Below, piece after piece: positions 20,613 to 64,000 of a stretch of 64,000 nucleotides of DNA. Position 1 is the stretch's first letter, and every line of letters starts with the position of its first letter. The position numbers and the translations under genes are program-made. The stretch comes from Erysipelotrichia bacterium (lineage in GTDB: Bacteria > Bacillota_I > Bacilli_A > RFN20 > CAG-826), in the NCBI GenBank assembly GCA_012522695.1, contig JAAYJX010000107.1, positions 22,408 through 86,407 of the forward strand, read 5' to 3'. The notes under the pieces were generated by a model. The model was not told the origin of the DNA. It saw nothing but the letters and a program-made list of their open reading frames with translations, and did no database searches.

Positions 20613-20613
20613 T

Positions 20614-28037: not shown

Positions 28038-28042
28038 CTTAT

Positions 28043-30131: not shown

Positions 30132-30134
30132 TTT

Positions 30135-31898: not shown

Positions 31899-31913
31899 CT
31901 TTTTACTTCCTTT

Positions 31914-36231: not shown

Positions 36232-36535
36232 GGTGATAAACCTCTTTTGTTACTATGTTAGCGAGTTCAACTTTTTTCTTTGTAATACTTTGGAGTAATT
36301 TAGTTTGTTCTTTATTTAAGTTTGCTTGAAAGGCTTCTTTTTTTTCTTCGATTATTTTTTTTGTTTTGGCTTCAATTTCTTCTTTTTCTTTTTTGGCTAA
36401 AGAAAGAAGTTCGTTAGCTTTTTCAGTACTCTTTTGTTTTGTTTTTTCTAACAAGTTTTCTTGATAGATTTTAGCATCCTCAATTAAGGCATTTGCCTGA
36501 CGTTCTGCTAAGATAATTTTCTCCATTGGTTTCAT
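36221..36535 (-). CDS. ntpF: V-type ATP synthase subunit G/H (Enterococcus NtpF; peripheral stalk)
   Basis: 104 aa charged helical protein. It is the first gene of the operon, as in E. hirae ntpFIKECGABD. Confidence 0.7.
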   Translation of the reverse strand: MKPMEKIILAERQANALIEDAKIYQENLLEKTKQKSTEKANELLSLAKKEKEEIEAKTKKIIEEKKEAFQANLNKEQTKLLQSITKKKVELANIVTKEVYHRDR

Positions 36536-47361: not shown

Positions 47362-49030
47362 GAAAAAAGGATTACTTTTTACACTTGCTTTAGCATCATC
47401 ATTTGTTTTAGCTTCGTGTAATGAAATTTCAGCTCTTCCCTTATTTTATGAAGGACCATTAGTCGTTAATCAAGATGGTGAAAAAACTGATGTTTATCAA
47501 AACTTAGTTGGTCTTTTATACGATTCATTAATTGATTCAAGCGATACTGCTAAAAAAGTTTTAAATGAAATGATGTATGTTATTGCAGTTGATCAATTTG
47601 GTGATTATCACGAAGTTAAAGAACTTCTTGAAACATCAGACGCAAATAGTGAAAAAGTTAGAGAGTTTATTGATGCTCACGCAAATGTTTATCAACGTGA
47701 TAGCGATGAAGAAAGTGACAAAAAAGCTAACGAATTTGCTCGTTTAGTCCACTTTGGTGAGGTTATGGATTATCGGATTAAAGAAGTTTTCTATAACGCT
47801 GCAACTGGTGGATCATATTCATATCGTTCACGATTTGATGAAGAAAAATACGCCGTTAGTTTAGCAAAAGATTTATACGATATCGAAGGTGTTTTCGAAC
47901 CAGGTGTTAATTGGCACGAAGATGTTTTAATCGATCCAAGTGTTAAAGTCGAAAATATTGGTAACTACGTTCATTTAGATCGTTATGATGATTATATTGA
48001 TCGCGGTGTTTTACCAAACCTTTATCGTGAACGTTTAGTCGAACAGTTTTTACTTGATAACAACTATTCAACTTTAGGTCGTACATATGCCCGTAAAGTT
48101 GAGTACATTAAAATTAGCAAAAATGATAATTACCCAAGTGCGGCTAAATCTTTAATTAATGCTTTTGTTGATAAATATATTTTAGATCCAAACGCAACTG
48201 GTGATGTTGATTTAGAAATTTTATCAAACGCCTGGCGCGGAATCGATTTAGACGTCGAAGCCGTTGCCTTACTTGATGAAGCATTTAGCAAAAAGGATGT
48301 TACTGATGCTGATGTTTTAAGTTATTTAGGTGATGCGACCGAATATTATCCGGAAACACAATTTGGCGCTATCGTCAAAGACTATTTAAAAATTACTGAT
48401 GATCGCTTTACGAATGATAAGAGTGTTGAAAGTGACTTTACTTCTAGTAACTCTTATAGCAAACAAGTTGGTTTAAAAATTAAAGCCGACACCCTTCGTT
48501 TAGAAGATTATACAAACGATGGTTGGTTCGTTAAAAGCGGCGGATTAAGCGAACTTCCCGAAGCAATTCGTTCACGTTTATTTAATATTAACGTTGCTAA
48601 CCAAGTCGATTTTCTTGTTGAAGAAGATCAAACTACACACGAATATGAATCTGGTAATTATGTTCGTAATATCCAAGGTAACTATTATTTAACACCAACG
48701 ATTTCCGAACAAGGAACAGACGTTCGCAAAGATAACTTTGTTATTTATGATATTTCAAGTTCAACATATTACATTATTAAAGTTCTTGAAGCTGTCTCAA
48801 CGAGTAAACTTTCTTATCTTAGTGATAATAACTATCAACACCTTCGCACAGATGAAAGTAAAACTTTTATCGAAGAAGTTGCCAAAGAAGTTACTCACGT
48901 TTTAAGTGCAAAAGACTCTTATATTAATAATGCTAACGAACATTATATTGGCCTTTATAACTTCAAATATCACGATACGACAATTTATGATTACTTTGTC
49001 GAAAACTTCCCAGATTTATTTGAAGAGTAA
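47351..49030 (+). CDS. Lipoprotein (hypothetical, acidic, surface-exposed)
   Basis: The start was re-assigned to MTNKKKGLLFTLALASSFVLASC (lipobox), an ATG at 47351 preceded by AAAGGAGG. It overlaps the upstream stop by 11 nt. Confidence 0.6.
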   Translation: MTNKKKGLLFTLALASSFVLASCNEISALPLFYEGPLVVNQDGEKTDVYQNLVGLLYDSLIDSSDTAKKVLNEMMYVIAVDQFGDYHEVKELLETSDANSEKVREFIDAHANVYQRDSDEESDKKANEFARLVHFGEVMDYRIKEVFYNAATGGSYSYRSRFDEEKYAVSLAKDLYDIEGVFEPGVNWHEDVLIDPSVKVENIGNYVHLDRYDDYIDRGVLPNLYRERLVEQFLLDNNYSTLGRTYARKVEYIKISKNDNYPSAAKSLINAFVDKYILDPNATGDVDLEILSNAWRGIDLDVEAVALLDEAFSKKDVTDADVLSYLGDATEYYPETQFGAIVKDYLKITDDRFTNDKSVESDFTSSNSYSKQVGLKIKADTLRLEDYTNDGWFVKSGGLSELPEAIRSRLFNINVANQVDFLVEEDQTTHEYESGNYVRNIQGNYYLTPTISEQGTDVRKDNFVIYDISSSTYYIIKVLEAVSTSKLSYLSDNNYQHLRTDESKTFIEEVAKEVTHVLSAKDSYINNANEHYIGLYNFKYHDTTIYDYFVENFPDLFEE

Positions 49031-49567: not shown

Positions 49568-52063
49568 TTATTTTTTCTGATAATTATTTTTTAAAAATTC
49601 TAACGCGTCACTTTCATTTAAAGGACGTGATAAATAATAACCTTGAGCATAATCACAATTGTATGTTTTTAAATATTCTAAATGTGTTTCGTTTTCAACG
49701 CCTTCACCAACAACAAGAAAACCAAGTTTTTGACCAAGCGAGATAATGTCTTCAGTAATCGCTTTATTAATTTCAATTAATTCAATACCTTGTAAAAAAG
49801 CTTTATCAATTTTTAAAGCGTTGATTTCTAAAGAAATGAGACGATGAAGTGAAGAAAAGCCCGTGCCAAAGTCGTCAATTGCCACACGAATACCTTTTGA
49901 CGTTAATTTTTTTAATAATTGGTTAATACCAAAATAAGACGTTGTAAATGAAACTTCAGTTAATTCAAGCCAAATAGAACGTGGATTAACACCAATTGAT
50001 TCAATAAGAGCTAAAAATTTATTAACAAATTGGCGATCAAGTAATTGTTGAAAAGAAACATTAATCGACATCGACATATGATCATAGCCTAAATCATGGA
50101 CTGATTTTAAGAAAGTCAAAGCTAAACGGTTAATTTTATCACCGTAAATAATCATTAACTTATTCCTTTCTAATAGGGGAATAAATTCTAAAGGAGGGAT
50201 AAGACCTAACTTTTCGCTTTTAAAGCGGGCTAGGGCTTCAAAACCACTTATTTCGCCACGTTTAACATTAAAGATTGGTTGATATTGTAAATATAGTTGT
50301 TCATTATCAATTTGTACTGAAGCATCAACTAATTCTTTTAAAATTTGTTTTTCGCGTTCAATTTTTAAAGCAAGACGATCATCAAAATAACTAATCTCAA
50401 TTAATTTATCATCACTAGCTCTTTCTTGCTCAGTCGTTAAAAGAACGTTTTTAAGAATCGTTTCAAGTTGATTTGGCTTAGTATTTGGAGGAATATGTAA
50501 AACACCAACCCGGCACGTCACGCGTTCACTCCATAACAATGGTTCTAAAACTTTAACGACCTTTAAATAAAACTGATGGATTTCTTCTTCACTATCATAA
50601 TTTTTAATATAAAAACTTAAACGTGTTTCATGAGTAAGATATAGTTTACAATTATCATTTTCTAAAACTTTAAGTTTATTACTAATTTTCTTCATTAAAT
50701 CTCTTATATAGTGATAACCATGACTACTCGTTAATTGTTGAATTGAATTTAAGTTTAATAAGAAAAATGTTTTTTTCGATTTTTTATCATAAGTTAAATC
50801 ATACGTCATAAGTGTTTCTAAATAACGACGATTATGTAAACCCGTCCATTCATCAAATTCACTTCTATGTTTAATTTCTGCCTCATATTTTTTAATTTCG
50901 TTAATATCAATAATGATACCTTCTATGGCAATTGTTTCTTTATCACTATTAATGATCGGTTCACCAATTTCTAAGACCCATTTTTTCTCCTTATTTTTTG
51001 TAATAATCGGATATTGAAAACGGTATGTTGTTTGGTTTTTAACAGCTTTAAGTTGTAAATGGTAAATTTCACTTAAATATTCAGGGGCGATTAAATCGAT
51101 AAATTTTAAATCACGATTATCAATAAAAGCTTCAGGTTCATAACCAGTTAATTCTCTTGAACCTTTGGAAACAAACACTTTCGTAAAATCTTTATCAATG
51201 CGACTACGATAAGCTAAACCTGGTAGATGCGATAACAAAACGTCTTTGCTTCTTTCGCTTTCAAGAAAAGAAAGTTCAAATGATTTACGAATGCTCGTAT
51301 CACGAATAATCGCAAAATAAGTAAAAATTTCATCATCGGGAATATCGACTTTAATAACGAATAAATGCGTATAAACAACATCACCATTAGGACGGATAAA
51401 ACGTTTATCTAGATCATATCGATCAATTTTGCCTTTGATAAAATCGTTAAAGTATTTTAAATCTTTTTCTAAATCTTCTGGATGAGTATATTTTCGCCAG
51501 TCAATTTCGGTATGAAGGTCTTCTTCGATTGGCACGCCTAAAATATCGCGAAAAGCTTTATTAGCTCGAAATGATTGTAAGCGACCACCGCCTCTACGGA
51601 AAAACCTTGTAATGGAAATACCAAAAGGCGCGTGATTAAAAAGAGCAACAAAAATTTCACGCATATCCGATGATCTTTTTGAAGCGATAACATATTCTTG
51701 ATCTTTTTCAATTGAGCGAACGGCAAAATTTAAAGCATCACCATTAATTGGTGTCGTTAAATATTCAAATGTTTGTAGTTCTTGTGATTCTAAATTGTTT
51801 TTAATTGTTTCTTCTTTGCCAAGTAGAATAACACGAATATCTTTTATTTTTTTATCAAATTTTAAATGAGCTAAAAGTTGGTAACCTAATAAATCAGGAG
51901 CGTCTAAATCTAAAAATAAAAGGGGCGAACTTTCAATTTTAGCAAAATAAGCTAGTGCTTTTTGAATATTCGAACTATAAAAAATTTTATAATTGTTTAA
52001 AGCTAGGCTAATCGTTTTGTAATGTTCGTCTTCTTTTGAGAAAACAATCGCATGTTTTGTCAT
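49568..52063 (-). CDS. Multidomain c-di-GMP signalling protein: REC-like, PAS, degenerate GGDEF and EAL phosphodiesterase
   Basis: 831 aa. N-terminal receiver-like fold. The GGDEF-domain start TGLHNRRYL is present but no GG(D/E)EF signature, so the cyclase looks degenerate. The EAL domain carries EALARF, DDFGTGFSSL and EGVE motifs and looks catalytically competent. Confidence 0.8.
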   Translation of the reverse strand: MTKHAIVFSKEDEHYKTISLALNNYKIFYSSNIQKALAYFAKIESSPLLFLDLDAPDLLGYQLLAHLKFDKKIKDIRVILLGKEETIKNNLESQELQTFEYLTTPINGDALNFAVRSIEKDQEYVIASKRSSDMREIFVALFNHAPFGISITRFFRRGGGRLQSFRANKAFRDILGVPIEEDLHTEIDWRKYTHPEDLEKDLKYFNDFIKGKIDRYDLDKRFIRPNGDVVYTHLFVIKVDIPDDEIFTYFAIIRDTSIRKSFELSFLESERSKDVLLSHLPGLAYRSRIDKDFTKVFVSKGSRELTGYEPEAFIDNRDLKFIDLIAPEYLSEIYHLQLKAVKNQTTYRFQYPIITKNKEKKWVLEIGEPIINSDKETIAIEGIIIDINEIKKYEAEIKHRSEFDEWTGLHNRRYLETLMTYDLTYDKKSKKTFFLLNLNSIQQLTSSHGYHYIRDLMKKISNKLKVLENDNCKLYLTHETRLSFYIKNYDSEEEIHQFYLKVVKVLEPLLWSERVTCRVGVLHIPPNTKPNQLETILKNVLLTTEQERASDDKLIEISYFDDRLALKIEREKQILKELVDASVQIDNEQLYLQYQPIFNVKRGEISGFEALARFKSEKLGLIPPLEFIPLLERNKLMIIYGDKINRLALTFLKSVHDLGYDHMSMSINVSFQQLLDRQFVNKFLALIESIGVNPRSIWLELTEVSFTTSYFGINQLLKKLTSKGIRVAIDDFGTGFSSLHRLISLEINALKIDKAFLQGIELIEINKAITEDIISLGQKLGFLVVGEGVENETHLEYLKTYNCDYAQGYYLSRPLNESDALEFLKNNYQKK

Positions 52064-52194
52064 CGTGCTTTAGTAAACAAAGTAAACAACTCTGTTTTGT
52101 AATCTTATTATAATAAAGATAAGTTAAAAAATATATAAATATGTCAAAAATATTTTAATTTTTAAAAAATAAACATCTAAAAAGTTATTTTATT

Positions 52195-52920
52195 TTAATC
52201 AAAAGAGTGAACTAATTCTTCTAAAAGCGTCTCAATTAAGCTACCAATATGAGGCTGAGCTTCTAAACCAATACGTAGGGCAGATATTAGCTGATTATCT
52301 TTGCCAACTTCGTAAGTAACGGCTTTAAGTAAAAGCCAAGGAACGTCATGAACATAACATGCCGTAATAACGCCACCAGATTCTGTATCAAGGGCGATTT
52401 TATTTTCAATGTGCGAAAAGTTTTTCTTAATTAATTCATTCGCAACTTTTAAATTCGTATGAAAAGTATTCGTTGAAACAAGTGGTCCACGACCAATATT
52501 TAAGTTTTCTGTCCGTGAGTTAAGTGTTTGAATTAAACGAATGTAATCATCTTCACTTGAATAAAAAACAGGTAAGTCTTTAATTTGTCCATATTTAGTA
52601 TTACCTAAAGCTTCTAAGTTCATATCACCTAAATGAACACGTTCAGCAATAAATAAATCACCTTGATGAAGGTTAGGACTAATTGAAGTAACCGCACCAA
52701 CAGAAATAACAATATAAGGTTTATACTTACTAATCATAAAACTTGTCACAATTGCGGAAGTAATATTTGAATAACCTGTATGGGCCAAACAAACATCTTT
52801 ACCAGCAAAAGAACCAACATAATAAGGATGTTTCATCGCGATTTTGTTTTCTTCGCTAATTTTTAGACGAGATTTAAAATATAAAATATCGTCTTCGGTT
52901 GTGCCAATAATTAAAATCAT
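52195..52920 (-). CDS. PNP_UDP_1-family nucleosidase (MTA/SAH nucleosidase-like)
   Basis: 241 aa. The N-terminal MILIIGTTEDD and the internal GSL / ESGG patterns resemble Pfs/MtnN-like phosphorylase-fold proteins. The assignment is moderate. Confidence 0.5.
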   Translation of the reverse strand: MILIIGTTEDDILYFKSRLKISEENKIAMKHPYYVGSFAGKDVCLAHTGYSNITSAIVTSFMISKYKPYIVISVGAVTSISPNLHQGDLFIAERVHLGDMNLEALGNTKYGQIKDLPVFYSSEDDYIRLIQTLNSRTENLNIGRGPLVSTNTFHTNLKVANELIKKNFSHIENKIALDTESGGVITACYVHDVPWLLLKAVTYEVGKDNQLISALRIGLEAQPHIGSLIETLLEELVHSFD

Positions 52921-54485
52921 TAATTACCACCTCTTCCTTTTTCAAAACGATTATTTTCTAAAAAGTTCATATAATTTTCTGGTCTAAGTGGTTCACTATA
53001 ATAAAACCCTTGAATACAATTTGCTCCCATTGATTGAAGAAGACGGATTTGTTCATATTCTTGAACACCTTCAATTACGACATATGCTTCTAAAATATGG
53101 GCAATTTTAATAATTTCACGGACTAAACCGCGTGATTTTTCATCAATTTCTAAATCACTTAAGAAAGCACGATCAATTTTAATAATGTCAAAAGGAATAC
53201 GTTTAATATAACTAAGTGAAGAGAAGCCTGTGCCAAAGTCGTCAATTGCTACTTTAATATTTAAAGCTTTAATTTTTTTGACAACCGCTAACAAATATAA
53301 AACGTCATATGGTGAAGGCGATTCAACGATTTCTACTTCTAATAACATCGGATTAATTTTATATTTTTTAATTGTTTCTTCAATATAAGGAACAACATCA
53401 CTACTAAAAATCATCCGTTTGGATAAGTTAACTGAAATAGGTAAAAGTCTTTTGCCGTGATCTCGCCAATGAGCTAAACGCTGACAAACAAGATCAAAAA
53501 CGTATTTATCAATTTCAATAATTAAATCAGATTGTTCGGCTAAAGAAATAAAAGCCGCTGGTGAAATTACACCACGCTCAGGATGAATCCAACGAAGTAG
53601 GGCTTCACTTGAAACAAAACGTTTAAGTTTTAAGTCGTATTTTGGTTGAAAGAAAACTTCAAATTCTTTTTTCTTTAAACCTTCTTCAATATCACGAGCT
53701 AAACCAACGTTACGTTCGCTTTTTTTAAACATTGAATCATTAAAAATAAAAATACCGCCGCGATCTGTATTAAGACGACCAAAATCACTTGCAATTAAAG
53801 CTGTTTGAAATAAACTTTCAGCCGAAGAGGTTTCTTTATTACGAATTGATAAACCATAGTGAGGATTAAAATCAATATTAACTTTTTCTTCACTTAAAAG
53901 ATGGTTAATATGTTCACTAAGTTTTTCTAAAGATTGTTGCATTTTCTTTTCGTTATATTTTGGAATAAAAAGTAAGAAGTTATCTGAATAATCATATCCA
54001 TAAAGTAATTTGGGATATTGTTTTTTTAATTCATCAATTGCTAAAAAAACCATACTAATAACTTTTGATTCTTTTTCATAACCATAACGTAAGAAAACTT
54101 CTTTTTTAAATTTAAACGTTGAAAAAGCAATTGCGACTGCTTCTTCATATTCTTTCCGACGGAAAAATTTATTAATTTGTAAAATTAAATCTCTTTCATC
54201 TAAAATATTTTCCGCTAATGGAAATAAGTTAGTATTTAAAACACGTTTAACAGATACTTGTTGCGAACGAGAGTAATTAATTAAGGCAAAAACTAAAAAG
54301 GCAATGCTTGTCAAAGTTAAAATAACAATTGCAAGTATTTTGTAGGCTAAATTACCATCAATGACTATAAAAGAGTCAAATAGCCCAGCGCTAACAATAA
54401 TATTTACAATAAAAAAGATAATAAAGCCTAAAAAATATAAGCTATATCGTAATGGATAATTAGGATTCTTATTTTTCATCTTCAT
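52920..54485 (-). CDS. Membrane-anchored degenerate-GGDEF / EAL c-di-GMP phosphodiesterase
   Basis: N-terminal 2 TM and a periplasmic-like loop. EAL domain with EALLRW and DDFGTGFSSL. No GGDEF signature. The start was probably trimmed to MKMKNKNP, and the track ORF extends to 54533. Confidence 0.75.
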   Translation of the reverse strand: MKMKNKNPNYPLRYSLYFLGFIIFFIVNIIVSAGLFDSFIVIDGNLAYKILAIVILTLTSIAFLVFALINYSRSQQVSVKRVLNTNLFPLAENILDERDLILQINKFFRRKEYEEAVAIAFSTFKFKKEVFLRYGYEKESKVISMVFLAIDELKKQYPKLLYGYDYSDNFLLFIPKYNEKKMQQSLEKLSEHINHLLSEEKVNIDFNPHYGLSIRNKETSSAESLFQTALIASDFGRLNTDRGGIFIFNDSMFKKSERNVGLARDIEEGLKKKEFEVFFQPKYDLKLKRFVSSEALLRWIHPERGVISPAAFISLAEQSDLIIEIDKYVFDLVCQRLAHWRDHGKRLLPISVNLSKRMIFSSDVVPYIEETIKKYKINPMLLEVEIVESPSPYDVLYLLAVVKKIKALNIKVAIDDFGTGFSSLSYIKRIPFDIIKIDRAFLSDLEIDEKSRGLVREIIKIAHILEAYVVIEGVQEYEQIRLLQSMGANCIQGFYYSEPLRPENYMNFLENNRFEKGRGGN

Positions 54486-55251
54486 CTCTCCTTTCTTCGC
54501 TTGAAGACCGCAGTTTTTCTTTTTCTTTTTCAATTAAAAGTTTGAGTTTTTCTTGCTGCTTAATTTTTTCAAATTCATCTAAGCCTTCAAAATCAACTGA
54601 AACTTTTTCTGTTTCTTCTTTGCGCTCTTTAACATTTTTAGAAATATCAAAAAGCGAGCTAATAAAAACGTATAAAAGAGGAACAAGACCAACGATAATA
54701 ATCGTAAAAGGATTGCGCGTAAATTTAACGAAAAGTCCTAAAGCTTTAGAGTTTTTAATCCAAACTCCTAAGACGTCTTCTTCTTTAATCGTGTCAATTC
54801 CTTTACCCGTGCTTTGATCGCACACACCATTAGGAAATTGAGAACAAGTTTCGGCATTTTTATTATCACCAAATGTTTTAAAAGTAAATTTACCATCATT
54901 TTCAATTTTTTCAATAACACGGTGAGTAATAATTAAGCCGTCACTTCGACGGAAATAAGTAATAATATCGCCATCCATTGCATCCTCACTACTAGGTCCT
55001 TTAATTTGATTAGCGGGGACGCGTTTAATAATAATACCAACATCAATCGGTAAAACTGGCTCCATCGAATCAGTTAAAACTGTCAGCATTTGATAATTAC
55101 CAAATCGTTGCACACCATGGTTACTTCTCGCCGTAATTAAACCAAAGACTTGAAAAAAGAGTAAAAGACCAGCAAGCGAACCTAAAACAATCGTTGTAAT
55201 TCTATTTACAAGTTTCTTTTTTGGTAACTTAACTTTTTCTTTCTTATTCAT
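54469..55251 (-). CDS. sipW: Signal peptidase I of ER/archaeal (SipW) type, with extended charged C-terminal tail
   Basis: 260 aa. N-terminal TM, SMEP catalytic-Ser motif (LTDSMEPVL) characteristic of SEC11/SipW-type SPases, a second C-terminal TM, then a K/E-rich tail. Confidence 0.75.
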   Translation of the reverse strand: MNKKEKVKLPKKKLVNRITTIVLGSLAGLLLFFQVFGLITARSNHGVQRFGNYQMLTVLTDSMEPVLPIDVGIIIKRVPANQIKGPSSEDAMDGDIITYFRRSDGLIITHRVIEKIENDGKFTFKTFGDNKNAETCSQFPNGVCDQSTGKGIDTIKEEDVLGVWIKNSKALGLFVKFTRNPFTIIIVGLVPLLYVFISSLFDISKNVKERKEETEKVSVDFEGLDEFEKIKQQEKLKLLIEKEKEKLRSSSEERRDEDEK

Positions 55252-56647
55252 CTTCTTTCCTTCTCATTTTAGCAACATTAATAACTTGTTCGCGCGCTTT
55301 TGCTAAAAGGGCTTCTTCTTCTAATCGTAGTTTTTCTAATCTTTCTTTTTCTTTTTTTGCTAAAATAGCGTCTTGTTTACGTTTAGCAAGAAGTAATTTA
55401 CGTTGACGTTCTTTTTCTTTCTTTTCAAGAGCTTTAAGTGCGGCAAGTTTTTTTGCCTCTTCGCGTTTTTCTAAAGCAAGTTGACGTTCTTTAGCTCTTT
55501 CTTCAAGACGAAGTTGTCGACGTTTTTCAGCCGCTTCAGCCCGTTTAATTTTTGCTTCAATTTGGGCAAGTGTTTCTTTTTTAACATCAACGCCGAAGGT
55601 TACGCTTTTACCAATAATTTTATCGTCAGTTAAATCAACATCAAGACGAACTTTTTTAAAGCGAGGTTTATAAAAGTATTGTTTCTTTTTATCACTTGGC
55701 ATCGTATGGTCACTTCTAAGTGTTAAATAAGAACTTAACATTAATAAATGTAAATCATCTAAATAATCTTCTTTAAATTCAATATCGTTTTGGCTAAAGC
55801 GATATTCAATACCTAAGACGTCATAACGTGTAATAAAAAGCCAGAGACGATACGCTGCTTGATATTCATAATTAAGACGCATTATATTTGTTTGTTGGAC
55901 CGGATCACTAACTGGTGCGACTTTACGCATTTCAAGCATAAAGCGCGAAGTTGTTAAGTATGTAATCCGTTTACGAATATGAAGAAGACGGTCGAGTAAA
56001 TCAGCATTAGCGTGTCTTTTCCCATCATCATCACTAGGAACAACAATCCGCATCTTAGTTTCAAATTCATATGATACTTCGTCGATTTTCATTTCTGAAG
56101 TTAATTTAACAATATCACTATGCCGTGTATCACTATGTTCAGATATATATTTATATCTAAGTTCAATAAAAGCTTGAAGACGACGAACAAGCGTCATAAT
56201 AAAACGGTTTTCATATATTTTTAATTCATCATCCATAAACATATTTAAAACTCGTTTAGGTTCGATTGTTCCATCACTACCAACTGAGCGGATATTTTGT
56301 GTATTTTGTGACATATGTTCAATTGAACGTTGGGTAATCTTTTTCGCCTTTTCAACACCGACAACTTCGGCTGTTTCTTTAATAAAACGATGTGGATCAT
56401 TAACAATTGCTTCTAAAGAAGGAAGCGCTCTTTCAATTTCTAAAATAAAATCAGGTGCATAAGTTTTAACTTCACGACGCGACACACCGCCATAAGTATT
56501 TTTAGAAGCAGCAAAAATATTTAAAAGTTCATGATATTCTTCATCACTACTTGCTAAACGTTTTAAGCGTGAAAAATGTTTTTGTTTTAAATCTTTAATA
56601 ATTTCGCTAGGAGTTAATACGGGAGCGTCTTTTTTGGTTTTTGCCAT
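55244..56647 (-). CDS. Hypothetical protein with a long C-terminal K/E/R-rich coiled coil. Partner of the AAA_5 ATPase; McrC-like role possible.
   Basis: 467 aa. No recognisable catalytic motifs beyond weak D...E.K-like stretches. Its start overlaps the sipW stop (8 nt) and it is 16 nt downstream of the ATPase gene. The last ~120 aa are a heptad-rich charged tail. Confidence 0.45.
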   Translation of the reverse strand: MAKTKKDAPVLTPSEIIKDLKQKHFSRLKRLASSDEEYHELLNIFAASKNTYGGVSRREVKTYAPDFILEIERALPSLEAIVNDPHRFIKETAEVVGVEKAKKITQRSIEHMSQNTQNIRSVGSDGTIEPKRVLNMFMDDELKIYENRFIMTLVRRLQAFIELRYKYISEHSDTRHSDIVKLTSEMKIDEVSYEFETKMRIVVPSDDDGKRHANADLLDRLLHIRKRITYLTTSRFMLEMRKVAPVSDPVQQTNIMRLNYEYQAAYRLWLFITRYDVLGIEYRFSQNDIEFKEDYLDDLHLLMLSSYLTLRSDHTMPSDKKKQYFYKPRFKKVRLDVDLTDDKIIGKSVTFGVDVKKETLAQIEAKIKRAEAAEKRRQLRLEERAKERQLALEKREEAKKLAALKALEKKEKERQRKLLLAKRKQDAILAKKEKERLEKLRLEEEALLAKAREQVINVAKMRRKEDE

Positions 56648-56662: not shown

Positions 56663-58183
56663 TTAACCTATTTTTAAATAATCTGAAATAATTCTTTGTG
56701 ATTGCCAAAAAACACCTTTACCAAATAATTTATCAAGTTCACTCGAAAGTTCTTTTAATTCATCGTGCATAAACGCTAAGTTAAGCGAAGTAAATTTCTT
56801 TAAAACTTTAGAAGCAAAAATAAAATCAAGTGCTTCGTTTTCTGTACCCCCGCAAGCAATATAGTTCGAAGTAAAAAGACGAAGTTGTCTTAAAATTCGA
56901 TTACCAAAAGCAATCCGAAAACGATCAGCAACAAGTTTATCTAAACGATCAAATTTTGTTAATGCTTCTTTACTAATTGGGTAATTTGTTTGAGCGTTAG
57001 CAAAAAGTTTTAAAAAATCAGCTGAAGAAATTGAAACACCTTCCGTATATTCAACTGAACATGCTTCAATTTTTTCATTTAAAGTAATACTAATTGCTCG
57101 ATCATAAACTTTATCAGTAATTGTAAAAGTTGAGTCATCATTATTTGCTGTACCGACAAACCAAAGGTTTTGGGAAATAAGTAATTTACCATTTTCTAAT
57201 TGTTTAGGATTAATATTATCGGCTGTTCTTGTAATTTGAACTTTCCATTCATCAACCGAAGGCATTTCCATAATTGAAAGAAAGTCAGCAAAATAATATT
57301 CAATACGCGCGAGGTTCATTTCATCAAGAATAATCATATTCGGTTCTTGACGGTAACTTGCTTCATAAATAGCTTGTAAAAATTCGGTTTCATTAAACTT
57401 TTTCGTAAATTCATTAAAATAACCGAGCATTTCTGTTCTTTCTCGCCAAGATGGTTGAACAGAACATATTACCGCGTCATGTTTAAAAAACTTACCAATT
57501 GCATATGGTAAAGAAGTTTTACCAGTTCCCGAAATACCTTCTAAAATAATAAACTTCGATGTTCCTAACGCCGCAAACATCGTCCGAACTGTGCTCATAT
57601 CATAATATAAACAAAGCTGAGAGGCGGCAAAACGGAAAAAACGATCAACAATTTGTTCTAAAGAAATACCAATATCACTAGGTGGAACTTCGACAGTTGT
57701 ATCTAAATCAGCATATTTAATATCTATTGCTCCCAATTTTGGAAAGGCTTCTAAAACACGACGGTCACTACCTTCACCATCTTCACCTTCTGGTTGAAGA
57801 CCAAAAGAATCAGCTTTAAGTTTTAAAATTTCATTTTTTTCTTGAATTGCTAAAAATAATTCTTTATTTAATTTTTGCACTTCATCAAGAAGTTTTTCTT
57901 TTGAAACACGGCGATTATTAAAAACAATAAGTTTACGAACTAAAAAATACATAACGTAACCAAGTGAACCAATAAGGGCAAAGACTAAAATAATAAAAAC
58001 GACGAAGAGAATCCAGCCTCCTGCGCCGAATTGATGATTGTATGTTTGAAAAATTAATTTGTATTGACCAAAGTCACTACCAACTCCATACCAAGGTTCA
58101 GCAAAAATCGTTGCTAAAAAATGGCCTAAGTTTTTAAATAAAGCTTCAAACAACTCTCGAATGTAATTAAAAAATGCACTCAT
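56663..58183 (-). CDS. Membrane-anchored AAA_5 (McrB-like) ATPase/GTPase
   Basis: 506 aa. One strongly hydrophobic TM (WILFVVFIILVFALIGSLGYVMYFLV), a coiled coil, Walker A EGISGTGKTS, McrB-like Walker B/sensor ILDEMNLARIEYYF and FVGTANNDD. Confidence 0.65.
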   Translation of the reverse strand: MSAFFNYIRELFEALFKNLGHFLATIFAEPWYGVGSDFGQYKLIFQTYNHQFGAGGWILFVVFIILVFALIGSLGYVMYFLVRKLIVFNNRRVSKEKLLDEVQKLNKELFLAIQEKNEILKLKADSFGLQPEGEDGEGSDRRVLEAFPKLGAIDIKYADLDTTVEVPPSDIGISLEQIVDRFFRFAASQLCLYYDMSTVRTMFAALGTSKFIILEGISGTGKTSLPYAIGKFFKHDAVICSVQPSWRERTEMLGYFNEFTKKFNETEFLQAIYEASYRQEPNMIILDEMNLARIEYYFADFLSIMEMPSVDEWKVQITRTADNINPKQLENGKLLISQNLWFVGTANNDDSTFTITDKVYDRAISITLNEKIEACSVEYTEGVSISSADFLKLFANAQTNYPISKEALTKFDRLDKLVADRFRIAFGNRILRQLRLFTSNYIACGGTENEALDFIFASKVLKKFTSLNLAFMHDELKELSSELDKLFGKGVFWQSQRIISDYLKIG

Positions 58184-58239: not shown

Positions 58240-59436
58240 TTAAATATCTTCTTCACTAGCAGCACTAAAGCGTAAGTTTGCACCGAACGATTTAGATCTA
58301 AGCTTGTTGCTAGAAAAGGCGTCCCAGCCTTCATACCAAATTTGAATTTTAATTTCGGCCACGCCTTTTGTGTCAGTTTTAGCAATTGGCTGACCATCAA
58401 TAAATTCGGCGCTATAAGTCGAAAAAATTGTATGTTCTTGAAGGGCTGGTTTGTAGTTAGGGTGATCAATTAATAAAGGGCGTACGCCTTGTAATGTCCC
58501 TGCTTGATGAAGCGAGGGGGTTATACTAGTTTCCAAAGGAATACTTTCAGTAGTAATATCCCCCCAATTACTTTCATCTAAAGGTTCTAAGAAATCGCCA
58601 TAAGCAATTTCATAACGTGAGCCAACTTCTGATTCATCATTTGGATTAATTTTAGATCCCTCAGGTGTGGCATCAAAAAATCCATCTTCATCTAAATCAA
58701 GGCGGCCCCCGACCGTTGTGTAATCATTTGTATCGCGACCCGGACTAATAATATCGCTCGTTAATTGGCTTTCAAAACCAAAACGCAAAACTTTCAGCAA
58801 TTCTTCGCTGCCATAAAATTCATTGTCCGCGCCGATGAAGATGCCATAATTAGCAACTCCACTTGATGATGTCTCACCATTAGTTGCTTTCGCTACCCGA
58901 AATAATATTGTAAAAGAAATAAATGTTTCTTTATCAGCGGGTATTATTTGTTTTGCTTGTGGACGAGAACTACCGGCAATTGGTTCTTGATATAAGTTAA
59001 TTGCATCACCTTTACTAAAACGTCGAGAAGTAATAGGCATAACTGCATTAGTAACCGAGAAACCATTGTGATAGATAATTTGTCGCAACGTTTGATTATT
59101 AACGACGTTGCTCGTCCAATAAACATAGCCGTCACCTTCAATTCCGTATTCATCTGGAACTAAAGAATATTTTTCTTGTTCATTAATCGAAATTGGTGTG
59201 GCGACACGAAAGCCTACTTCTCTTATGCCGACTTCTTCTTTATTTAAAAAGTCAAAGCCGATTGTCGTTGTGTTAGCTAAATATTCACCAATCGTATAGC
59301 CAAGATAAGAAATTAAGACAAACGCTGCTAAAACACTACTTGAAATCGAGGTTAAAATGATCGAACGTTTTTTACGCTTCTTATGATCATTAACTTCTTT
59401 TTCTATATTAATTTGACGCAAACGCAAGTCCTCCAC
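58240..59436 (-). CDS. Membrane-anchored extracellular protein, distant paralogue of the TasA-like family (TapA-like anchor/accessory candidate)
   Basis: 398 aa. N-terminal basic stretch plus one TM. C-terminal AEIKIQIWYEGWDAF...GANLRF resembles VDVTFRFWIEGEDEH...IGGVFKIDLKMY of the three downstream paralogues. The annotated start is GTG. A TTG 5 codons in has better GGAGGA spacing. Confidence 0.5.
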   Translation of the reverse strand: MEDLRLRQINIEKEVNDHKKRKKRSIILTSISSSVLAAFVLISYLGYTIGEYLANTTTIGFDFLNKEEVGIREVGFRVATPISINEQEKYSLVPDEYGIEGDGYVYWTSNVVNNQTLRQIIYHNGFSVTNAVMPITSRRFSKGDAINLYQEPIAGSSRPQAKQIIPADKETFISFTILFRVAKATNGETSSSGVANYGIFIGADNEFYGSEELLKVLRFGFESQLTSDIISPGRDTNDYTTVGGRLDLDEDGFFDATPEGSKINPNDESEVGSRYEIAYGDFLEPLDESNWGDITTESIPLETSITPSLHQAGTLQGVRPLLIDHPNYKPALQEHTIFSTYSAEFIDGQPIAKTDTKGVAEIKIQIWYEGWDAFSSNKLRSKSFGANLRFSAASEEDI

Positions 59437-59907
59437 TTTCTTAATAGAAATAGTCTAAAGAGACATCTTTGTTCGGTAAATTCACCATGTTTTGATTCTA
59501 ACCCCATTACTTGTTAGAGATCACTTGTGAAAAGATGCCTTTCTCACTAACTTGTTTAGACTTGTTAGGAGTCCCTCTAAAGAATAAAACGATGCTAACC
59601 GAGAATTGCCCAGAATCAATTAGTTATCTTATTCTTTCGGCAACTGGCTACCATCGTTTTGAAGGCCCTATAGTTTTGCGTCGCTAAATTTCTTTAGTTT
59701 TGCCTTTTTCGGTATTGATTATATAACAACTCAATAATCTTGTAAAGCCTTTTAATCAAAATTAGTCATATTTCACTAAATTATTACATTTTACTATGTA
59801 AAGAATGCAAAAAGACATATACTTTATCCAGTTATAACAACCTTAAACATAAAGAAAAAACCACCTAGAGATGGCTTTTCTTCATCTATTAATAATATCT
59901 AAATTAA

Positions 59908-60267
59908 TTATTTTTCTTTTTTAGCCGCTAATTCTTTTTCAAGTTCTTCACGTGCTTGACGACGCGCTTCTTCTAAAAGTTCTTCGTGCGATAAAGCCGC
60001 TACAGCGCCTTCTTTTTCCGTCATTAATGATTTAACAAGTAAGAAGACATTAAACAAGAATAGAATGATTAAAGGCAATACAATTAAAACAAAGAACCAA
60101 ACAGGATTCATTTGTAACCATTTAATAAACATATTAGATGATTCCCCTAACGTAGTTAAGGCAACAATTGAAATAGTAACGAGAACAACGGTAAGTACGA
60201 TCTGTGCGATAACTAAAACCAAATTCAGCCAGCTAGGCAATTTAATTTTTGTTTTTTCTTTATTCAT
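59908..60267 (-). CDS. Small membrane protein (2 TM, charged C-terminal helix)
   Basis: 119 aa. Two hydrophobic helices, then EELLEEARRQAREELEKELAAKKEK. Confidence 0.5.
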   Translation of the reverse strand: MNKEKTKIKLPSWLNLVLVIAQIVLTVVLVTISIVALTTLGESSNMFIKWLQMNPVWFFVLIVLPLIILFLFNVFLLVKSLMTEKEGAVAALSHEELLEEARRQAREELEKELAAKKEK

Positions 60268-60330
60268 ATATGAGCTCCATGCATATTAAAAAAATATATT
60301 CTTTACGATAAAACTATCTTAATAGAAAAA

Positions 60331-60371
60331 AACTAGGGTGTCAAATTAAATTTATTCGACAAGCCCTAGTT
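60331..60371 (-). terminator. Terminator hairpin after TasA-like gene 1 (copy A of a repeated element)
   Basis: AACTAGGG...GCCCTAGTT inverted repeat followed by a T-run on the minus strand. Confidence 0.6.
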
Positions 60372-60406
60372 ATTTTAGAAAACTACGTTATAAACTTTGT
60401 AAGAAA

Positions 60407-61300
60407 TTAAGCAATAACTGGTAATGCGTACATCTTAAGATCGATTTTAAAGACACCACCGATAGCAGCGTTAACTGCGTGTTCGTCTTCGCCTTCAATC
60501 CAAAAACGGAAAGTGACATCAACAGTTGGAGCAGCGGATGTAAGTGTAAGGAAGGGTTCATAATTGTCAGCAGCAGCTTCTGCTACAGTTGGGTAGTAAT
60601 CAAATGCAGCGCCTTCCACAACGTCAGTTAAAACTTCAGTGTCAAGATATTCTTTAACACCCCAAGCTTCATCTTGGTCATCACCAGTTTTGGTTAAATA
60701 ATTGTAAGTTGTTTCTGCTTCAGGTGAATAATGATAAAATGCAGCTCCACCTTTAATCGCGGCCATACGAACGGCTTTAACAGCAGCAACGTCTGCGGCA
60801 TCAGCGCTTGCAGCGGTAACTGCAGTGCCTGCGTCAAAATAAACGTTTAAATCATTTGTTGATTGTGCGCCTGAGCCACGAGCGATTGTTAATGTAAAGT
60901 CAATTAAATAACCATCGGCATCACCAGCAGCGGCTAATGTAATATCATCAATACGATCGGCAACTTGGCCTCCGCCATAGGTGTTGGCCTTCCAGACTGG
61001 TTTGTAAAAATCAATACCGTCGCCGGAAATGTCAGTAACCTTGTTACCGCCTGAAAGAACAACATTATTAACAGTTTTACCATCATTAACATAATCATTA
61101 GTTGTGGCAGTCATAGTGTTTAGGGATGAAACATAGTGAACACTTAAGTCATTATCTTGTGTTTCAACGGTTGCGCTACTATATGAGATAGATGCGCTAC
61201 GGACGGTTGTAAACCAAGCAAATGTTGAGCTGGTTGCAGCAATACCACTTAAAACAACGAGTCCCATAATTGTAAGTAATACTTTATTTTTCTTATTCAT
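60407..61300 (-). CDS. Secreted TasA/camelysin-like protein with SipW-cognate signal peptide (paralogue 1)
   Basis: 297 aa. MNKKNKVLLTIMGLVVLSGIAATSSTFAWFTTV matches the SipW-dependent signal class (compare B. cereus CalY ...GGGTFAFFSD). The mature part is Ala/Thr/Gly-rich. The conserved C-terminus FRFWIEGEDEHAVNAAIGGVFKIDLKMYALPV is present. Confidence 0.7.
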   Translation of the reverse strand: MNKKNKVLLTIMGLVVLSGIAATSSTFAWFTTVRSASISYSSATVETQDNDLSVHYVSSLNTMTATTNDYVNDGKTVNNVVLSGGNKVTDISGDGIDFYKPVWKANTYGGGQVADRIDDITLAAAGDADGYLIDFTLTIARGSGAQSTNDLNVYFDAGTAVTAASADAADVAAVKAVRMAAIKGGAAFYHYSPEAETTYNYLTKTGDDQDEAWGVKEYLDTEVLTDVVEGAAFDYYPTVAEAAADNYEPFLTLTSAAPTVDVTFRFWIEGEDEHAVNAAIGGVFKIDLKMYALPVIA

Positions 61301-61336
61301 AATTTTAAATTCTCCTTTTGTAATGAATATTCTTTA

Positions 61337-62227
61337 TTATAAGTTTACGGGTAATCCGTAAAGTTGTAATTCGATGTCGAATAATCCGCCAATGGCGTCA
61401 TTATCACAATGAACATCTTCACCTTCGAGCCATGCACGGAAGGTAACATCAACTGAAGCTCCTTTTGCCACACTAGCAATTGCAGTTGTAGCACCATCAG
61501 CAGTAGTCACATCAGTGTATTCAACAAACGCATTGTAATAAGGTCCGGCGTGGACAGCGGTTGTATACCCGTCTACACTATAAAGGTCTTCACCAGCGTC
61601 TTCGACAATGTGCTTATGTCCACCAGCTTCTGCTTCAGGTGAATAAATTAAGACGACAGCATCAGCTGCGCTAATAACAGCTAAGCGTGCAGCTTTAACA
61701 GCGGCAGCATTTTTAGCTTCTTGAGCTAATTCTTCTGGTGTTGCAGTACCCCCAGCGTATTCAACTTCTTTAGCAATAATTTTTGTGTCTGGACCAAGAT
61801 ATACTTTCATATCATCATCACCAATATCGTCAAGACTAATCGTGATCGTAAAGTCAACGTAATAACCATCAGCGCTTGTTGCACCCACGGTTGGAATTTC
61901 ATTAGCGACACGAGCAGATGGTTTGTCAAGTAGTGAATTCCAAACAGGTTTGTAAAAAACAAGACCATCACTTGAGACGTCTGTAATATCATTAATGCCA
62001 TCTAAAATGATTTCGTTGGCACTGCCAGTATCAGTCATACCAGAGTTTAATGAAGATTTAAAAGCAATATCTAAATTACCTTCTTTAGTAACGACTTTCG
62101 CGCTGGAATAATGTAGGGAAGCTGTTCGCGCAGTATAAAACCAAGCAAACGTTGAACTAATAGCAGCAATTCCGCTTAAAAAAGCTAAGCCAATTGTTGC
62201 TAATAAAATTTTGTTTTTCTTATTCAT
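61337..62227 (-). CDS. Secreted TasA/camelysin-like protein with SipW-cognate signal peptide (paralogue 2)
   Basis: 296 aa. MNKKNKILLATIGLAFLSGIAAISSTFAWFYTART. C-terminus FRAWLEGEDVHCDNDAIGGLFDIELQLYGLPV. Confidence 0.7.
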   Translation of the reverse strand: MNKKNKILLATIGLAFLSGIAAISSTFAWFYTARTASLHYSSAKVVTKEGNLDIAFKSSLNSGMTDTGSANEIILDGINDITDVSSDGLVFYKPVWNSLLDKPSARVANEIPTVGATSADGYYVDFTITISLDDIGDDDMKVYLGPDTKIIAKEVEYAGGTATPEELAQEAKNAAAVKAARLAVISAADAVVLIYSPEAEAGGHKHIVEDAGEDLYSVDGYTTAVHAGPYYNAFVEYTDVTTADGATTAIASVAKGASVDVTFRAWLEGEDVHCDNDAIGGLFDIELQLYGLPVNL

Positions 62228-62368
62228 GTAGAAAATCCTCCAATAGATTTCTCCTTTGTTGTTAAGGAGTTGTGAGGTCCAAATTGTTAATGGGACAATG
62301 GCCTCAAAGCGGGCAATTCGCTTCTAGTATCCATCAACGAGGGAGGTCAAATAAATACTAGCACCATT

Positions 62369-62398
62369 ATTATAGTATGTTTTGTAACTAAAATGCAA
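62369..62398 (-). promoter_or_regulatory. Promoter for the paralogue-2/1 transcript
   Basis: Minus strand TTGCAT, 18 nt spacer, TATAAT. It predicts a ~135-nt 5' leader. Confidence 0.5.
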
Positions 62399-62692
62399 GT
62401 ATTATGTTGTTACGAAGTAACAAGAAATTAAATTTTTAACATTTTTAAAAGTTTTTTGAAAAAAATTCGCTTTATTTTTATAAATTTAGATTTTTTAAGT
62501 GAATAAGTGACTTTGAAAAATGTGTGATTTTTTTAGTTTTTGTTTCTTTTTAAAAAACCATTATTTTTGTCGTAAAAAATATTTTTTTGCCTTGTGATGT
62601 TTTTTATAATAAAAATTGAGTTTTTTTGAGACTATTTTAGCCTTTTTGAAAAAACTAAATTTTAAAAATTATAAAAGCTGTTTTGGATAAAA

Positions 62693-62733
62693 AAACTAGG
62701 GCTTTTTATAAGTAAATTGTTTGCCCTAGTTAT
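62693..62733 (-). terminator. Terminator hairpin after TasA-like gene 3 (copy B of the repeated element)
   Basis: AACTAGGGC-(loop)-GCCCTAGTT with the same stem sequence as at 60331-60371. A T-run follows on the minus strand. Confidence 0.6.
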
Positions 62734-62755
62734 TTTGTTAGTTTATAAGAATTAA

Positions 62756-63829
62756 TTAAATGACTGACAATGCATACATTCTTAGGTCAATACTAAAGAC
62801 ACCACCAATTGCGGCGTTAACTGCATCATCGTCTTCGCCTTCAACCCAAAAGCGGAAAGTAATATGAGCAGTTGGATCAGCTTCAGTAAGTGTAAGAAGG
62901 GGTTTATAATTTGCGTCTTCAGCTTCGACAACAGTTGAAAAATATTTAAACTCAGAACCTTTTTCATTTATTGTCGGTGTTGAAGGGTCATCTTGAATAC
63001 CTTCAACAGCATTAATCACATCTTCAGGATCAGCGGCATCACCTAAAATTGATGTATTAGAATAACCTAAAATAGTATAAGTAGTTCCACCACTGTCTTC
63101 ACTTAAATAATTATAAAGAGGCTCCGCGTGTGGCGCGTAATAGAAAATAGGCTTTAAGGGGCTTATATCGTCTATTACGGGATTATCAGGGTCAGTAATG
63201 TCATAAGTAACATCTGTTTCAATTACGGCCATTCTTACGGCTTCAACGACTTTATTATTTCGATCTTGTTGTTCAATTTGAGCATTACTTGGATTTTGAT
63301 TTTCGCCTATAACATCAATTGGCGAAATAAGTGTCCCACGATCAAAATAAATATTTAAATCATTTGGCGAATAAAGGTTAACACCACGAGCTATTTCTAA
63401 AGTAAAATCAATTAAATATCCATCAGCAGATTTAGTAAGATTGCCTTTATTATCTTTGTAAGATAAATCTATTTCATTAATATAGTCAGCTATACTTGCA
63501 TCGCCTGGATCATAAGCACTCCAAACAGGTTTGTAAAAATTAATGCCATCGCCTGAAATATCAGTAACTTTGTTAAGACCAGAAAGGACAACATTATTAG
63601 AACTTTTTCCTTCATTAACAGAAAGATTTGTTGTTGCGGTCACTGAATTAAGTGATGATATATATTTAACACTTAGGTCGTTATTTTTTGTTTCAACAGT
63701 TGCGCTTGTAAAAGAAATTATCGCACTACGAACGGTAGTAAACCAAGCAAAGGTTGAACCAGTCGCCGCCGCACCACTTAAAACAACAAGGCCAATTGTT
63801 GTTAGTAATAATTTATTTTTCTTATTCAT
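62756..63829 (-). CDS. Secreted TasA/camelysin-like protein with SipW-cognate signal peptide (paralogue 3, with ~60-aa insertion)
   Basis: 357 aa. MNKKNKLLLTTIGLVVLSGAAATGSTFAWFTTV. N-terminal 110 aa nearly identical to paralogue 1. C-terminus FRFWVEGEDDDAVNAAIGGVFSIDLRMYALSV. Confidence 0.7.
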   Translation of the reverse strand: MNKKNKLLLTTIGLVVLSGAAATGSTFAWFTTVRSAIISFTSATVETKNNDLSVKYISSLNSVTATTNLSVNEGKSSNNVVLSGLNKVTDISGDGINFYKPVWSAYDPGDASIADYINEIDLSYKDNKGNLTKSADGYLIDFTLEIARGVNLYSPNDLNIYFDRGTLISPIDVIGENQNPSNAQIEQQDRNNKVVEAVRMAVIETDVTYDITDPDNPVIDDISPLKPIFYYAPHAEPLYNYLSEDSGGTTYTILGYSNTSILGDAADPEDVINAVEGIQDDPSTPTINEKGSEFKYFSTVVEAEDANYKPLLTLTEADPTAHITFRFWVEGEDDDAVNAAIGGVFSIDLRMYALSVI

Positions 63830-63856
63830 TTTTTTATTTCTCCATAAGCTTTTTAT

Positions 63857-64000
63857 TGATCGTAATGTTTACGAATTTCGATTGTTTCAATTGTAAAAGT
63901 CAGACCTTGATAAACATTAGAGTTACCTAATGTTGATTTTTCATAAAAAACATCACCATTATCTTTTGAGGCAAATTTATAAAAAGTTGAGGGGTCGCCA
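63857..64000 (-). CDS. 3' end of an upstream gene (partial, unknown function), probably co-transcribed with paralogue 3
   Basis: My translation of the minus frame gives ...GDPSTFYKFASKDNGDVFYEKSTLGNSNVYQGLTFTIETIEIRKHYDQ*, stopping at 63857-63859. Only 27 nt separate it from the GGAGAAAT RBS and the paralogue-3 start. Confidence 0.4.

Follow-up and report, generated by a model that had tools for sequence, protein, structure and literature searches.

Two genes at the 3' end of a locus for secreted proteins, EAL1 and EAL2, are likely to encode catalytically competent phosphodiesterases (PDEs) of cyclic di-guanosine monophosphate (c-di-GMP) that carry relics of GGDEF domains, and to be the last genes of a cassette of ~21 kb controlled by this second messenger. 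The locus lies in a 64,000-nucleotide (nt) stretch of an Erysipelotrichia bacterium (contig JAAYJX010000107.1, positions 22,408 to 86,407), hereafter the window. Control of the secreted-protein locus by c-di-GMP is well supported, since one c-di-GMP riboswitch (RS1) lies inside the locus, a second (RS2) and a diguanylate cyclase are on the same contig, and the arrangement is conserved among relatives. Coordinates are window positions, and features of the locus are on the minus strand (-) unless marked (+).

From 5' to 3' the locus contains three paralogous genes for secreted proteins (here called fibre proteins), tm119, a terminator, p398, genes for an AAA+ protein and a coiled-coil protein, the gene of a SipW-type signal peptidase (sipW), EAL2, pfs and EAL1; a convergent HIT gene follows. 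An earlier note on this DNA had the two EAL genes flanking the fibre locus; instead, both are at its 3' end, on the same strand and with only pfs between them. Enzymes of c-di-GMP metabolism do bracket the locus once the cyclase is counted.

Active sites of EAL1 and EAL2

EAL1 (49568..52063, -) encodes a cytoplasmic protein of 831 amino acids (aa) with a pseudo-receiver, two PAS domains, a degenerate GGDEF domain and an EAL domain (Pfam; alignment of 117 homologues). EAL2 (52920..54479, -) encodes 519 aa with two transmembrane (TM) helices, a cryptic degenerate GGDEF fold and an EAL domain, and is 100% identical to the publicly called protein (P0121). Both EAL domains match Pfam PF00563 (cut-off 31.3 bits) over its full length, with 203.9 bits (3.2e-60) for aa 582-814 of EAL1 (49622..50320) and 223.4 bits (3.5e-66) for aa 273-515 of EAL2 (52935..53663). 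The list of open reading frames (ORFs) extends EAL2 to a TTG at 54533 (52920-54533); its true start is probably the ATG at 54479, which gives the 519 aa of P0121 and is preceded by the Shine-Dalgarno sequence AAAGGAGAG. This start has an 11-nt overlap with the sipW stop (54469-54471); at the other end of EAL2, its stop and the start of pfs overlap in TAATG.

The criteria for an intact EAL site, drawn from RocR, comprise seven catalytic residues (E175, N233, E265, E268, D295, K316, E352) and four that recognize the substrate (Q161, R179, D296, D318) (PMC2952852). All 11 are kept in both proteins. The metal-binding and catalytic set consists of E609, N668, E700, E703, D730, K751 and E787 in EAL1, and of E292, N351, E383, E386, D413, K434 and E470 in EAL2; the substrate-recognition set is Q595, R613, D731 and D753 in the former, and Q278, R296, D414 and D436 in the latter. 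These residues are invariant or nearly so in the family alignments (117 homologues for EAL1, 50-60 for EAL2), and their spacing equals that in RocR except for the interval from E175 to N233 (59 vs. 58). Loop 6 reads DDFGTGFSS in both proteins; the loop-6 criterion of Rao et al. (2009) is reportedly DFG(T/A)GYSS. The motifs listed in the earlier note (EALARF/EALLRW, DDFGTGFSSL and EGVE/EGVQ) are all present.

Because the residues named in the criteria are kept, EAL1 and EAL2 look catalytically competent as c-di-GMP PDEs. One departure counts against this: EAL2 reads EGVQ rather than EGVE, although the substitution is fixed throughout its family and the second Glu is not among the 11 residues. 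The same departure would suit a role of both proteins as catalytically silent receptors or scaffolds, similar to LapD, FimX and YkuI, coupling c-di-GMP to secretion or assembly instead of degrading it. Such a role would also fit the degenerate GGDEF domains, which LapD and FimX share, the appearance of LapD and FimX among the structural and sequence matches, and the membrane anchor of EAL2 together with its translational coupling to SipW. We consider it very improbable nonetheless, as both families conserve the 11 residues and an intact loop-6 motif, and the closest relatives of both proteins in the PDB are active PDEs (MorA, BifA, MucR, PdeA, DosP, RocR), which match far better (E ~1e-40 to 1e-48) than FimX and LapD do (1e-9 to 1e-19). 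For EAL1, the PDB matches include the EAL domains of MorA, DosP and RocR.

Elsewhere in the window, an NrnA-like DHH/DHHA1 protein is encoded at 690-1646 (NF053633, E 1e-74, 251 bits vs. a cut-off of 350); it is a candidate degrader of pGpG, the product of EAL phosphodiesterases.

Degenerate GGDEF domains and sensory modules

As the earlier note had claimed, the GGDEF-like domains lack a GG(D/E)EF motif, and a six-frame scan of the window found no in-gene GGDEF. In EAL1 the domain spans aa 403-537 (50453..50857) and scores 22.0 bits against the Pfam GGDEF cut-off of 23.8; the motif position reads THETR, and T[HY]E[NT]R throughout the family (117 homologues). In EAL2 the cryptic domain (aa ~95-245, 53745..54197) has no Pfam match in the window protein and was recognized by its structure, with YSDNF at the motif position and Y[NS][ED]NF in the family. 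In the AlphaFold2 (AF2) model of EAL2 (predicted local distance difference test score, pLDDT, 89.6), two TM helices precede an alpha/beta domain (aa 95-245), which a linker helix joins to the EAL barrel. The model aligns over 426-436 columns with the GGDEF-EAL tandem structures 5m3c and 4rnh (PA0575, MorA; Foldseek), and the NCBIfam PRK10060 alignment covers aa 120-529 of EAL2. Since the degeneracy is family-wide in both proteins, the loss is old; for EAL1 the family-wide T[HY]E[NT]R likewise points to an old non-catalytic domain. The GGDEF domains thus appear to be ancient non-catalytic relics rather than products of random decay. The sole six-frame hit, a GGEEF at 14230 (+), was dismissed as spurious, being antisense to a Radical_SAM/UPF0004/TRAM gene (13595-15046, -) that has no GGDEF domain.

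The other modules agree with the earlier description of a cytoplasmic EAL1 with REC-like and PAS domains and a TM-anchored EAL2 directly after sipW. The PAS region of EAL1 (aa ~138-396, 50876..51652) contains two PAS folds (PAS_3 5.5e-22, PAS_9 1.6e-13, PAS_8 8.7e-4), and the REC-like domain (51704..52063) matches Response_reg with 21.2 bits (cut-off 30.2). In its pocket SK takes the place of the acidic pair DD, G that of the conserved T, and T that of the conserved K; the wider family retains DD, D, T and K. With the acidic pair, Thr and Lys missing and a score below threshold, the domain is a pseudo-receiver. EAL1 has no TM segment (maximum KD19 hydropathy 1.28). The two TM helices of EAL2 span aa 8-31 and 45-80 (54240..54458; AF2 secondary structure, KD19 peaks of 2.6-2.85).

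c-di-GMP riboswitches

RS1 (59636..59714, -) is a c-di-GMP-I (GEMM-I) aptamer matched over its full length by Rfam RF01051 (66.5 bits vs. a gathering threshold of 35, E 8e-11). It lies 200 nt upstream of p398, after the terminator of the upstream unit. Directly upstream of it is a sigma-70-like promoter (TTTACA, 17 nt, TATAAT; 59718..59746, -), the top match in a 15-kb scan (11 of 12 positions), whose TTTACA box is invariant in the relatives. The RS1 terminator hairpin (59586..59660, -) has a U-rich tail to ~59575; folded by itself, it has a minimum free energy (MFE) of -28.4 kcal/mol. The 3' half of the aptamer doubles as the 5' arm of this hairpin, which is kept in six RS1 instances.

The sequence beyond the window was read from NCBI contig JANHAN010026275.1 (110.6 kb; L013), which is identical to the window at the join; positions above 64000 are window-equivalent coordinates. 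RS2 is there at 67897-67977 (-), a second c-di-GMP-I riboswitch (65.5 bits) with an overlapping terminator and a run of six U. Relatives contribute 12 further RF01051 instances (61-71 bits). Across the 14 instances 99.2% of cells in the GEMM-I pairing are paired, against 15-37% in slid controls, and four GEMM-I pairs carry compensatory double changes. The terminator overlaps the aptamer in 14 of 14 instances and its arm co-varies with it, from GGUAGC/GCUAC to GGCAGCC/GGCUGC (a compensatory change in L019 and L020). A permissive Rfam scan (49-64 kb) detected no additional riboswitch ahead of EAL1 or of the fibre genes in the window.

Because the 5' arm of the terminator is the 3' half of the aptamer, the two are mutually exclusive, which is an ON architecture: RS1 and RS2 are predicted to be ON switches in which ligand binding should block termination. 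Three observations weigh against this prediction or against a uniform ligand. First, the polarity was derived from predicted thermodynamic folds alone. Second, an invariant AGAGGGACUCC box (~59563-59573, -) stands 3' of the RS1 terminator's U run at each of the six RS1 loci, pairs with the aptamer GGGCC in the MFE fold, and could be part of a more complex platform. Third, the RS1 instances of three relatives, L004 (4689-4766), L005 (781-859) and L006 (2175-2253), read AGCAAA, and their ligand preference might differ. In the window RS1 and in every RS2 instance the sequence is GGCAAA, the first G of which we take to be the equivalent of Vc2 G20, a ligand contact; an A at this position in GEMM-I RNAs is linked to cGAMP binding or relaxed specificity.

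Were the riboswitches OFF switches, or switches acting on translation, it would be low c-di-GMP that allows expression of the PDEs and the fibre locus, a regime of positive feedback and bistability rather than homeostasis. Both polarities are known for class-I c-di-GMP riboswitches; Cd1 of Clostridioides difficile is an OFF switch (PMC6366702). We regard this polarity as quite unlikely here: in 14 of 14 instances the sole strong hairpin with a U run uses the 3' strand of the aptamer as its 5' arm, with no separate anti-terminator, and ON polarity agrees with the general pattern in which adhesive structures are promoted by high c-di-GMP (PMC6366702).

The cyclase and conservation of the cassette

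A multi-TM GGDEF cyclase of 389 aa is encoded ~4.3 kb past the window end (68161-69330, +; L013:4500-5669(-)), divergent from the RS2 operon. It keeps RFGGDEF and DINNFKSINDRYGHGFGD, matches PF00990 with 123.9 bits (7e-36, profile positions 1-158 of 161) and TIGR00254 with 114.9 bits (cut-off 37.4), and aligns to PleD, WspR and DgcR. At the position of the RxxD I-site it has SRGN, and thus no I-site. The earlier note had named mutated EAL residues, or a genome with no cyclase, as what would speak against its reading; the EAL active sites are intact, and a cyclase with RFGGDEF is on the same contig.

Between the window end and the cyclase lie the rest of p260, a gene for a secreted protein with a YAWF motif whose 3' end is inside the window (63853..64000, -), p777 (64685-67018, -) and p279 (67021-67860, -).

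Synteny extends over the whole ~21-kb cassette in some 10 relatives from metagenome-assembled genomes (MAGs) or metagenomes, and gene order and riboswitch positions recur at 40-75% aa identity. Six MAG contigs with relatives of EAL2 (58-64% identity) retain the order tm119, the riboswitch, p398, the AAA+ and coiled-coil genes, sipW, EAL2, pfs, EAL1 and HIT, and among relatives of the cyclase (39-52% identity) a divergent riboswitch is present on seven of nine contigs. On one contig (L022) both riboswitches are found, 7.1 kb apart, with gene order unchanged. The window sequence itself is also present in several anaerobic-digester assemblies.

Are the EAL genes part of the operon?

From p398 to pfs, the gene junctions overlap or are at most 56 nt apart, and no intergenic terminator was seen from p398 to the convergent HIT gene beyond EAL1. 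The genes from p398 to pfs are therefore predicted to be transcribed together from the RS1 promoter, probably with EAL1. A 131-nt AT-rich gap with promoter-like matches precedes EAL1, and transcription of its own is possible for this gene; this counts against full co-transcription. The gap would also fit EAL genes that serve general c-di-GMP housekeeping and merely adjoin the secreted-protein locus, with their own promoters and no dedicated link to it, as would the very wide distribution of the EAL1 family (~830 aa; Clostridia, Thermotogota, Bacilli). That explanation seems unlikely given that the EAL2 start overlaps the sipW stop and the EAL2 stop the pfs start, that the order SipW, EAL2, Pfs, EAL1 is found in every relative spanning the region (39-65% identity), and that the EAL2 family is confined to one clade of Bacilli MAGs. 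We thus retain the assignment of both EAL genes to the c-di-GMP-controlled cassette.

Other genes of the locus

Pfs/MtnN (52195..52920, -; 241 aa) is an MTA/SAH nucleosidase (TIGR01704, 85.6 bits vs. a cut-off of 73.8). In every relative covering that position, its gene is found between EAL2 and EAL1, and it is coupled translationally to EAL2. The SipW-type peptidase (54469..55251, -; 260 aa) appears to be a divergent signal peptidase I with a C-terminal TM segment and a charged tail. It shows the Ser and His motifs SMEP and THRV as well as GDN, and matches NF046067 SipW (E 3.8e-18, 65.7 bits vs. a cut-off of 190) and TIGR02228 (46.9 vs. 51.85 bits) below threshold, with no match in Pfam.

Upstream of sipW are cc467 (55244..56647, -), whose product has a C-terminal Lys/Glu-rich coiled coil and no match in Pfam, NCBIfam or PADLOC, and AAA506 (56663..58183, -), which encodes a membrane-anchored McrB-like AAA+ protein (AAA_22 weak; PADLOC PDC-M26A 3.8e-41; PDB McrB E 6e-4). 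Both are placed between p398 and sipW in every relative, and could represent an assembly motor or a domesticated McrBC-like pair. PADLOC, run on seven locus proteins, returned only the candidate-family match of the AAA+ protein, and the cassette is not classed as a defence system.

The first gene after RS1, p398 (58240..59436, -), encodes a signal-anchored distant fibre paralogue, for which public gene calls use a start giving 393 aa. The upstream unit ends with tm119 (59908..60267, -), a small membrane protein gene that is syntenic in relatives, and with the terminator that closes the fibre-subunit transcription unit (59855..59880, -; an 11-bp stem followed by a T run).

Two large proteins with membrane anchors (631 and 583 aa; 45466-49030, +) are encoded on the opposite strand, and their genes are read toward the end of the EAL operon. 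The first has a PrsA/SurA-like peptidyl-prolyl isomerase domain, and the two could be secretion chaperones for the locus.

The secreted proteins

The three fibre paralogues have 297, 296 and 357 aa (60407..61300, 61337..62227 and 62756..63829, all -), and each has a SipW-type N-terminus that ends in SSTFAWFTT. Together with p398 they share a C-terminal W-x-EG-x-D...N...F...L motif. A hydrophobic N-terminus followed by [ST][FY]A[WS][FLY] is found in p279, p777, p260 and the three paralogues, with p398 as the sole exception (L013:5970-9977, window 58240-63829). This common motif suggests one dedicated class of SipW substrates with major and minor subunits. The family forms 231 clusters among 1.84 billion representatives.

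The window fibre proteins have no Pfam or NCBIfam match, none of 97 family members matches Peptidase_M73 in Pfam, and a profile search of the family against the PDB found nothing. Several points weigh against a reading of these proteins as TasA-like fibres. In an hhalign comparison with TasA, only the signal peptide aligned, with a probability of 3%; an AF2 model made with the four window paralogues has a pLDDT of 38 and is unusable as a fold model; and the putative fibre nature was deduced from SipW linkage and the N-terminal motif. The secreted proteins may still work like TasA.

Lineage and the Mollicute question

The earlier note had treated c-di-GMP signalling as a surprise in a Mollicute-like genome. 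The GC content is low (~31%) and the standard code is used (TGA is a stop in 6 of 59 ORFs); UGA codes Trp in only some Mollicutes orders. NCBI labels matching or related sequences as 'Bacilli bacterium', 'Bacillota bacterium' or 'uncultured Staphylococcaceae', and a search with MnmG gave 'Bacilli bacterium' MAGs only. Peptidoglycan genes were not encountered in the ~84 kb examined, which is weak evidence. At 19064-22470 are a gpsB-like gene, rnpB (RNase P class B), an RNase T-like exonuclease gene and recU, followed by convergent nth and dnaD. Here recU abuts nth with a 10-nt overlap and ponA (PBP1) is absent from the junction; in Bacillus subtilis, ponA and ypoC lie between recU and nth. The missing ponA hints weakly at a lineage without a cell wall. 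A dcw/penicillin-binding protein cluster, which would have ruled out such a lineage, was suspected among the ORFs at 28-36 kb, but these proved to be a V/A-type ATPase operon. This operon (28093-36535) is complete (subunits I, K/c, F, A, B and D), and a flavin mononucleotide (FMN) riboswitch lies just downstream of it (27930-28041), upstream of a gene for an energy-coupling factor (ECF) S-component.

Low GC and the lack of peptidoglycan genes in the ~84 kb and of ponA at its junction would be in line with a Mollicute that has an exceptional and perhaps orphan c-di-GMP system, its EAL domains repurposed for want of a cyclase. This is extremely improbable: the intact GGDEF cyclase on the same contig refutes the point of a missing cyclase, two c-di-GMP riboswitches would serve as receptors, and public taxonomy labels are no finer than 'Bacilli bacterium'. 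The premise that Mollicutes lack c-di-GMP circuitry is itself outdated, with 14 GGDEF/EAL proteins in Acholeplasma laidlawii (PMC2408644), so the claimed surprise fails even for a Mollicute-like lineage. No view on Mollicutes is overturned by the locus.

A proposed circuit

We propose that the divergent membrane GGDEF cyclase would be the source of c-di-GMP. RS2 would gate p279, p777, p260, the three fibre paralogues and tm119, and RS1 would gate p398, the McrB-like AAA+ protein, the coiled-coil protein, SipW, EAL2, Pfs and probably EAL1. At high c-di-GMP both riboswitches would be read through, and the SipW-dependent secreted proteins would be made along with the machinery that processes them. 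The same signal would induce two PDEs that bring c-di-GMP down again, and the outcome would be negative feedback or a pulse. EAL2 would act as a membrane enzyme translationally coupled to SipW, and EAL1 would contribute a PAS-sensed cytoplasmic input, its receiver having lost the phospho-acceptor pocket.

More tentatively, and in our estimate probably going too far, this self-contained circuit of a cyclase, two tandem ON riboswitches and two induced PDEs might drive an undescribed SipW-dependent filament system in a low-GC, uncultured and possibly wall-less lineage of Bacilli found in anaerobic digesters. Its parts would be the ~300-aa subunit family, minor subunits with the [ST][FY]AW[FL] cleavage motif, the 777-aa component and the membrane McrB-like AAA+ protein as a motor. 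If so, this would be a new type of c-di-GMP-pulsed surface appendage and no copy of TasA.

A riboswitch-gated operon with two apparently active PDEs, together with a cyclase, would be a compact natural case of second-messenger feedback wired via RNA, conserved over the clade and easily rebuilt in a reporter host. Riboswitch control of c-di-GMP metabolic genes has been called rare in a review (PMC6366702). The locus also ties c-di-GMP to a presumably SipW-dependent secreted family for which there is no Pfam model, and hints that an uncultured lineage of anaerobic digesters has a matrix or filament system.

Comparison with known systems

The enzymes resemble PA0575, MorA and BifA of Pseudomonas aeruginosa, DosP and PdeR of Escherichia coli and PdeA of Caulobacter crescentus, which likewise have the tandem fold with an intact EAL domain and a regulatory, non-synthetic GGDEF domain, and which are the best structural and sequence matches of EAL1 and EAL2. 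Compared with these proteins, EAL1 and EAL2 have much more strongly degraded GGDEF motifs (THETR, YSDNF), the GGDEF domain of EAL2 is not seen by Pfam, and the tandem of EAL1 is joined to a pseudo-receiver. For c-di-GMP enzymes in low-GC, standard-code Bacilli of Mollicute grade, A. laidlawii is a precedent, although no link to a SipW locus or a riboswitch is described for its set, unlike here (PMC2408644).

The earlier note had also seen an echo of c-di-GMP control of biofilm matrix in Firmicutes. Control of the present locus by c-di-GMP is supported by RS1, RS2, the cyclase and synteny, but the parallel to Firmicutes matrix is loose. In B. subtilis, tapA-sipW-tasA is regulated by protein repressors, and c-di-GMP is not known to control it. 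By analogy, the riboswitch-controlled pili and adhesins of C. difficile and B. thuringiensis appear to be closer. A search of the literature found no description linking c-di-GMP riboswitches with TasA, sipW or camelysin loci.

In C. difficile, Cdi-2-4/pilA1, CD2831 and CD3246 are likewise under Gram-positive ON riboswitches, in which a terminator forms without ligand and c-di-GMP gives read-through to filament or adhesin genes (PMC6366702, PMC6200980). Those switches are class II and their cargo includes type IV pilins, whereas here the switches are class I and the cargo is a set of secreted proteins predicted to depend on SipW. Moreover, here two switches divide the subunit and processing operons, two PDE genes are in the controlled operon and a cyclase is at the head of the locus. 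Bc2 of B. thuringiensis (Cap/CbpA) is, like RS1 and RS2, a class-I switch from low-GC Bacillota, and keeps a surface-protein gene repressed until c-di-GMP rises (PMC4933901, PMC7423583). It governs a single adhesin gene, without the SipW, embedded PDE and cyclase genes and tandem operons that are all present here.

With tapA-sipW-tasA of B. subtilis, the locus shares a dedicated SipW-type peptidase, a putative one here, encoded with several secreted proteins (PMC9674648, PMC10151520), as well as major paralogues with a larger accessory paralogue. An N-terminal hydrophobic segment with an aromatic-rich cleavage region is also common to both (TFAWF here, TWAAF or TFAYF in TasA and CalY), but there is no detectable sequence similarity to TasA past the signal peptide and no Peptidase_M73 match, and the McrB-like AAA+ protein, the coiled-coil protein and the 777-aa protein are found only here. 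All components of the cassette are of known kinds; what is new is their wiring and the fibre family.

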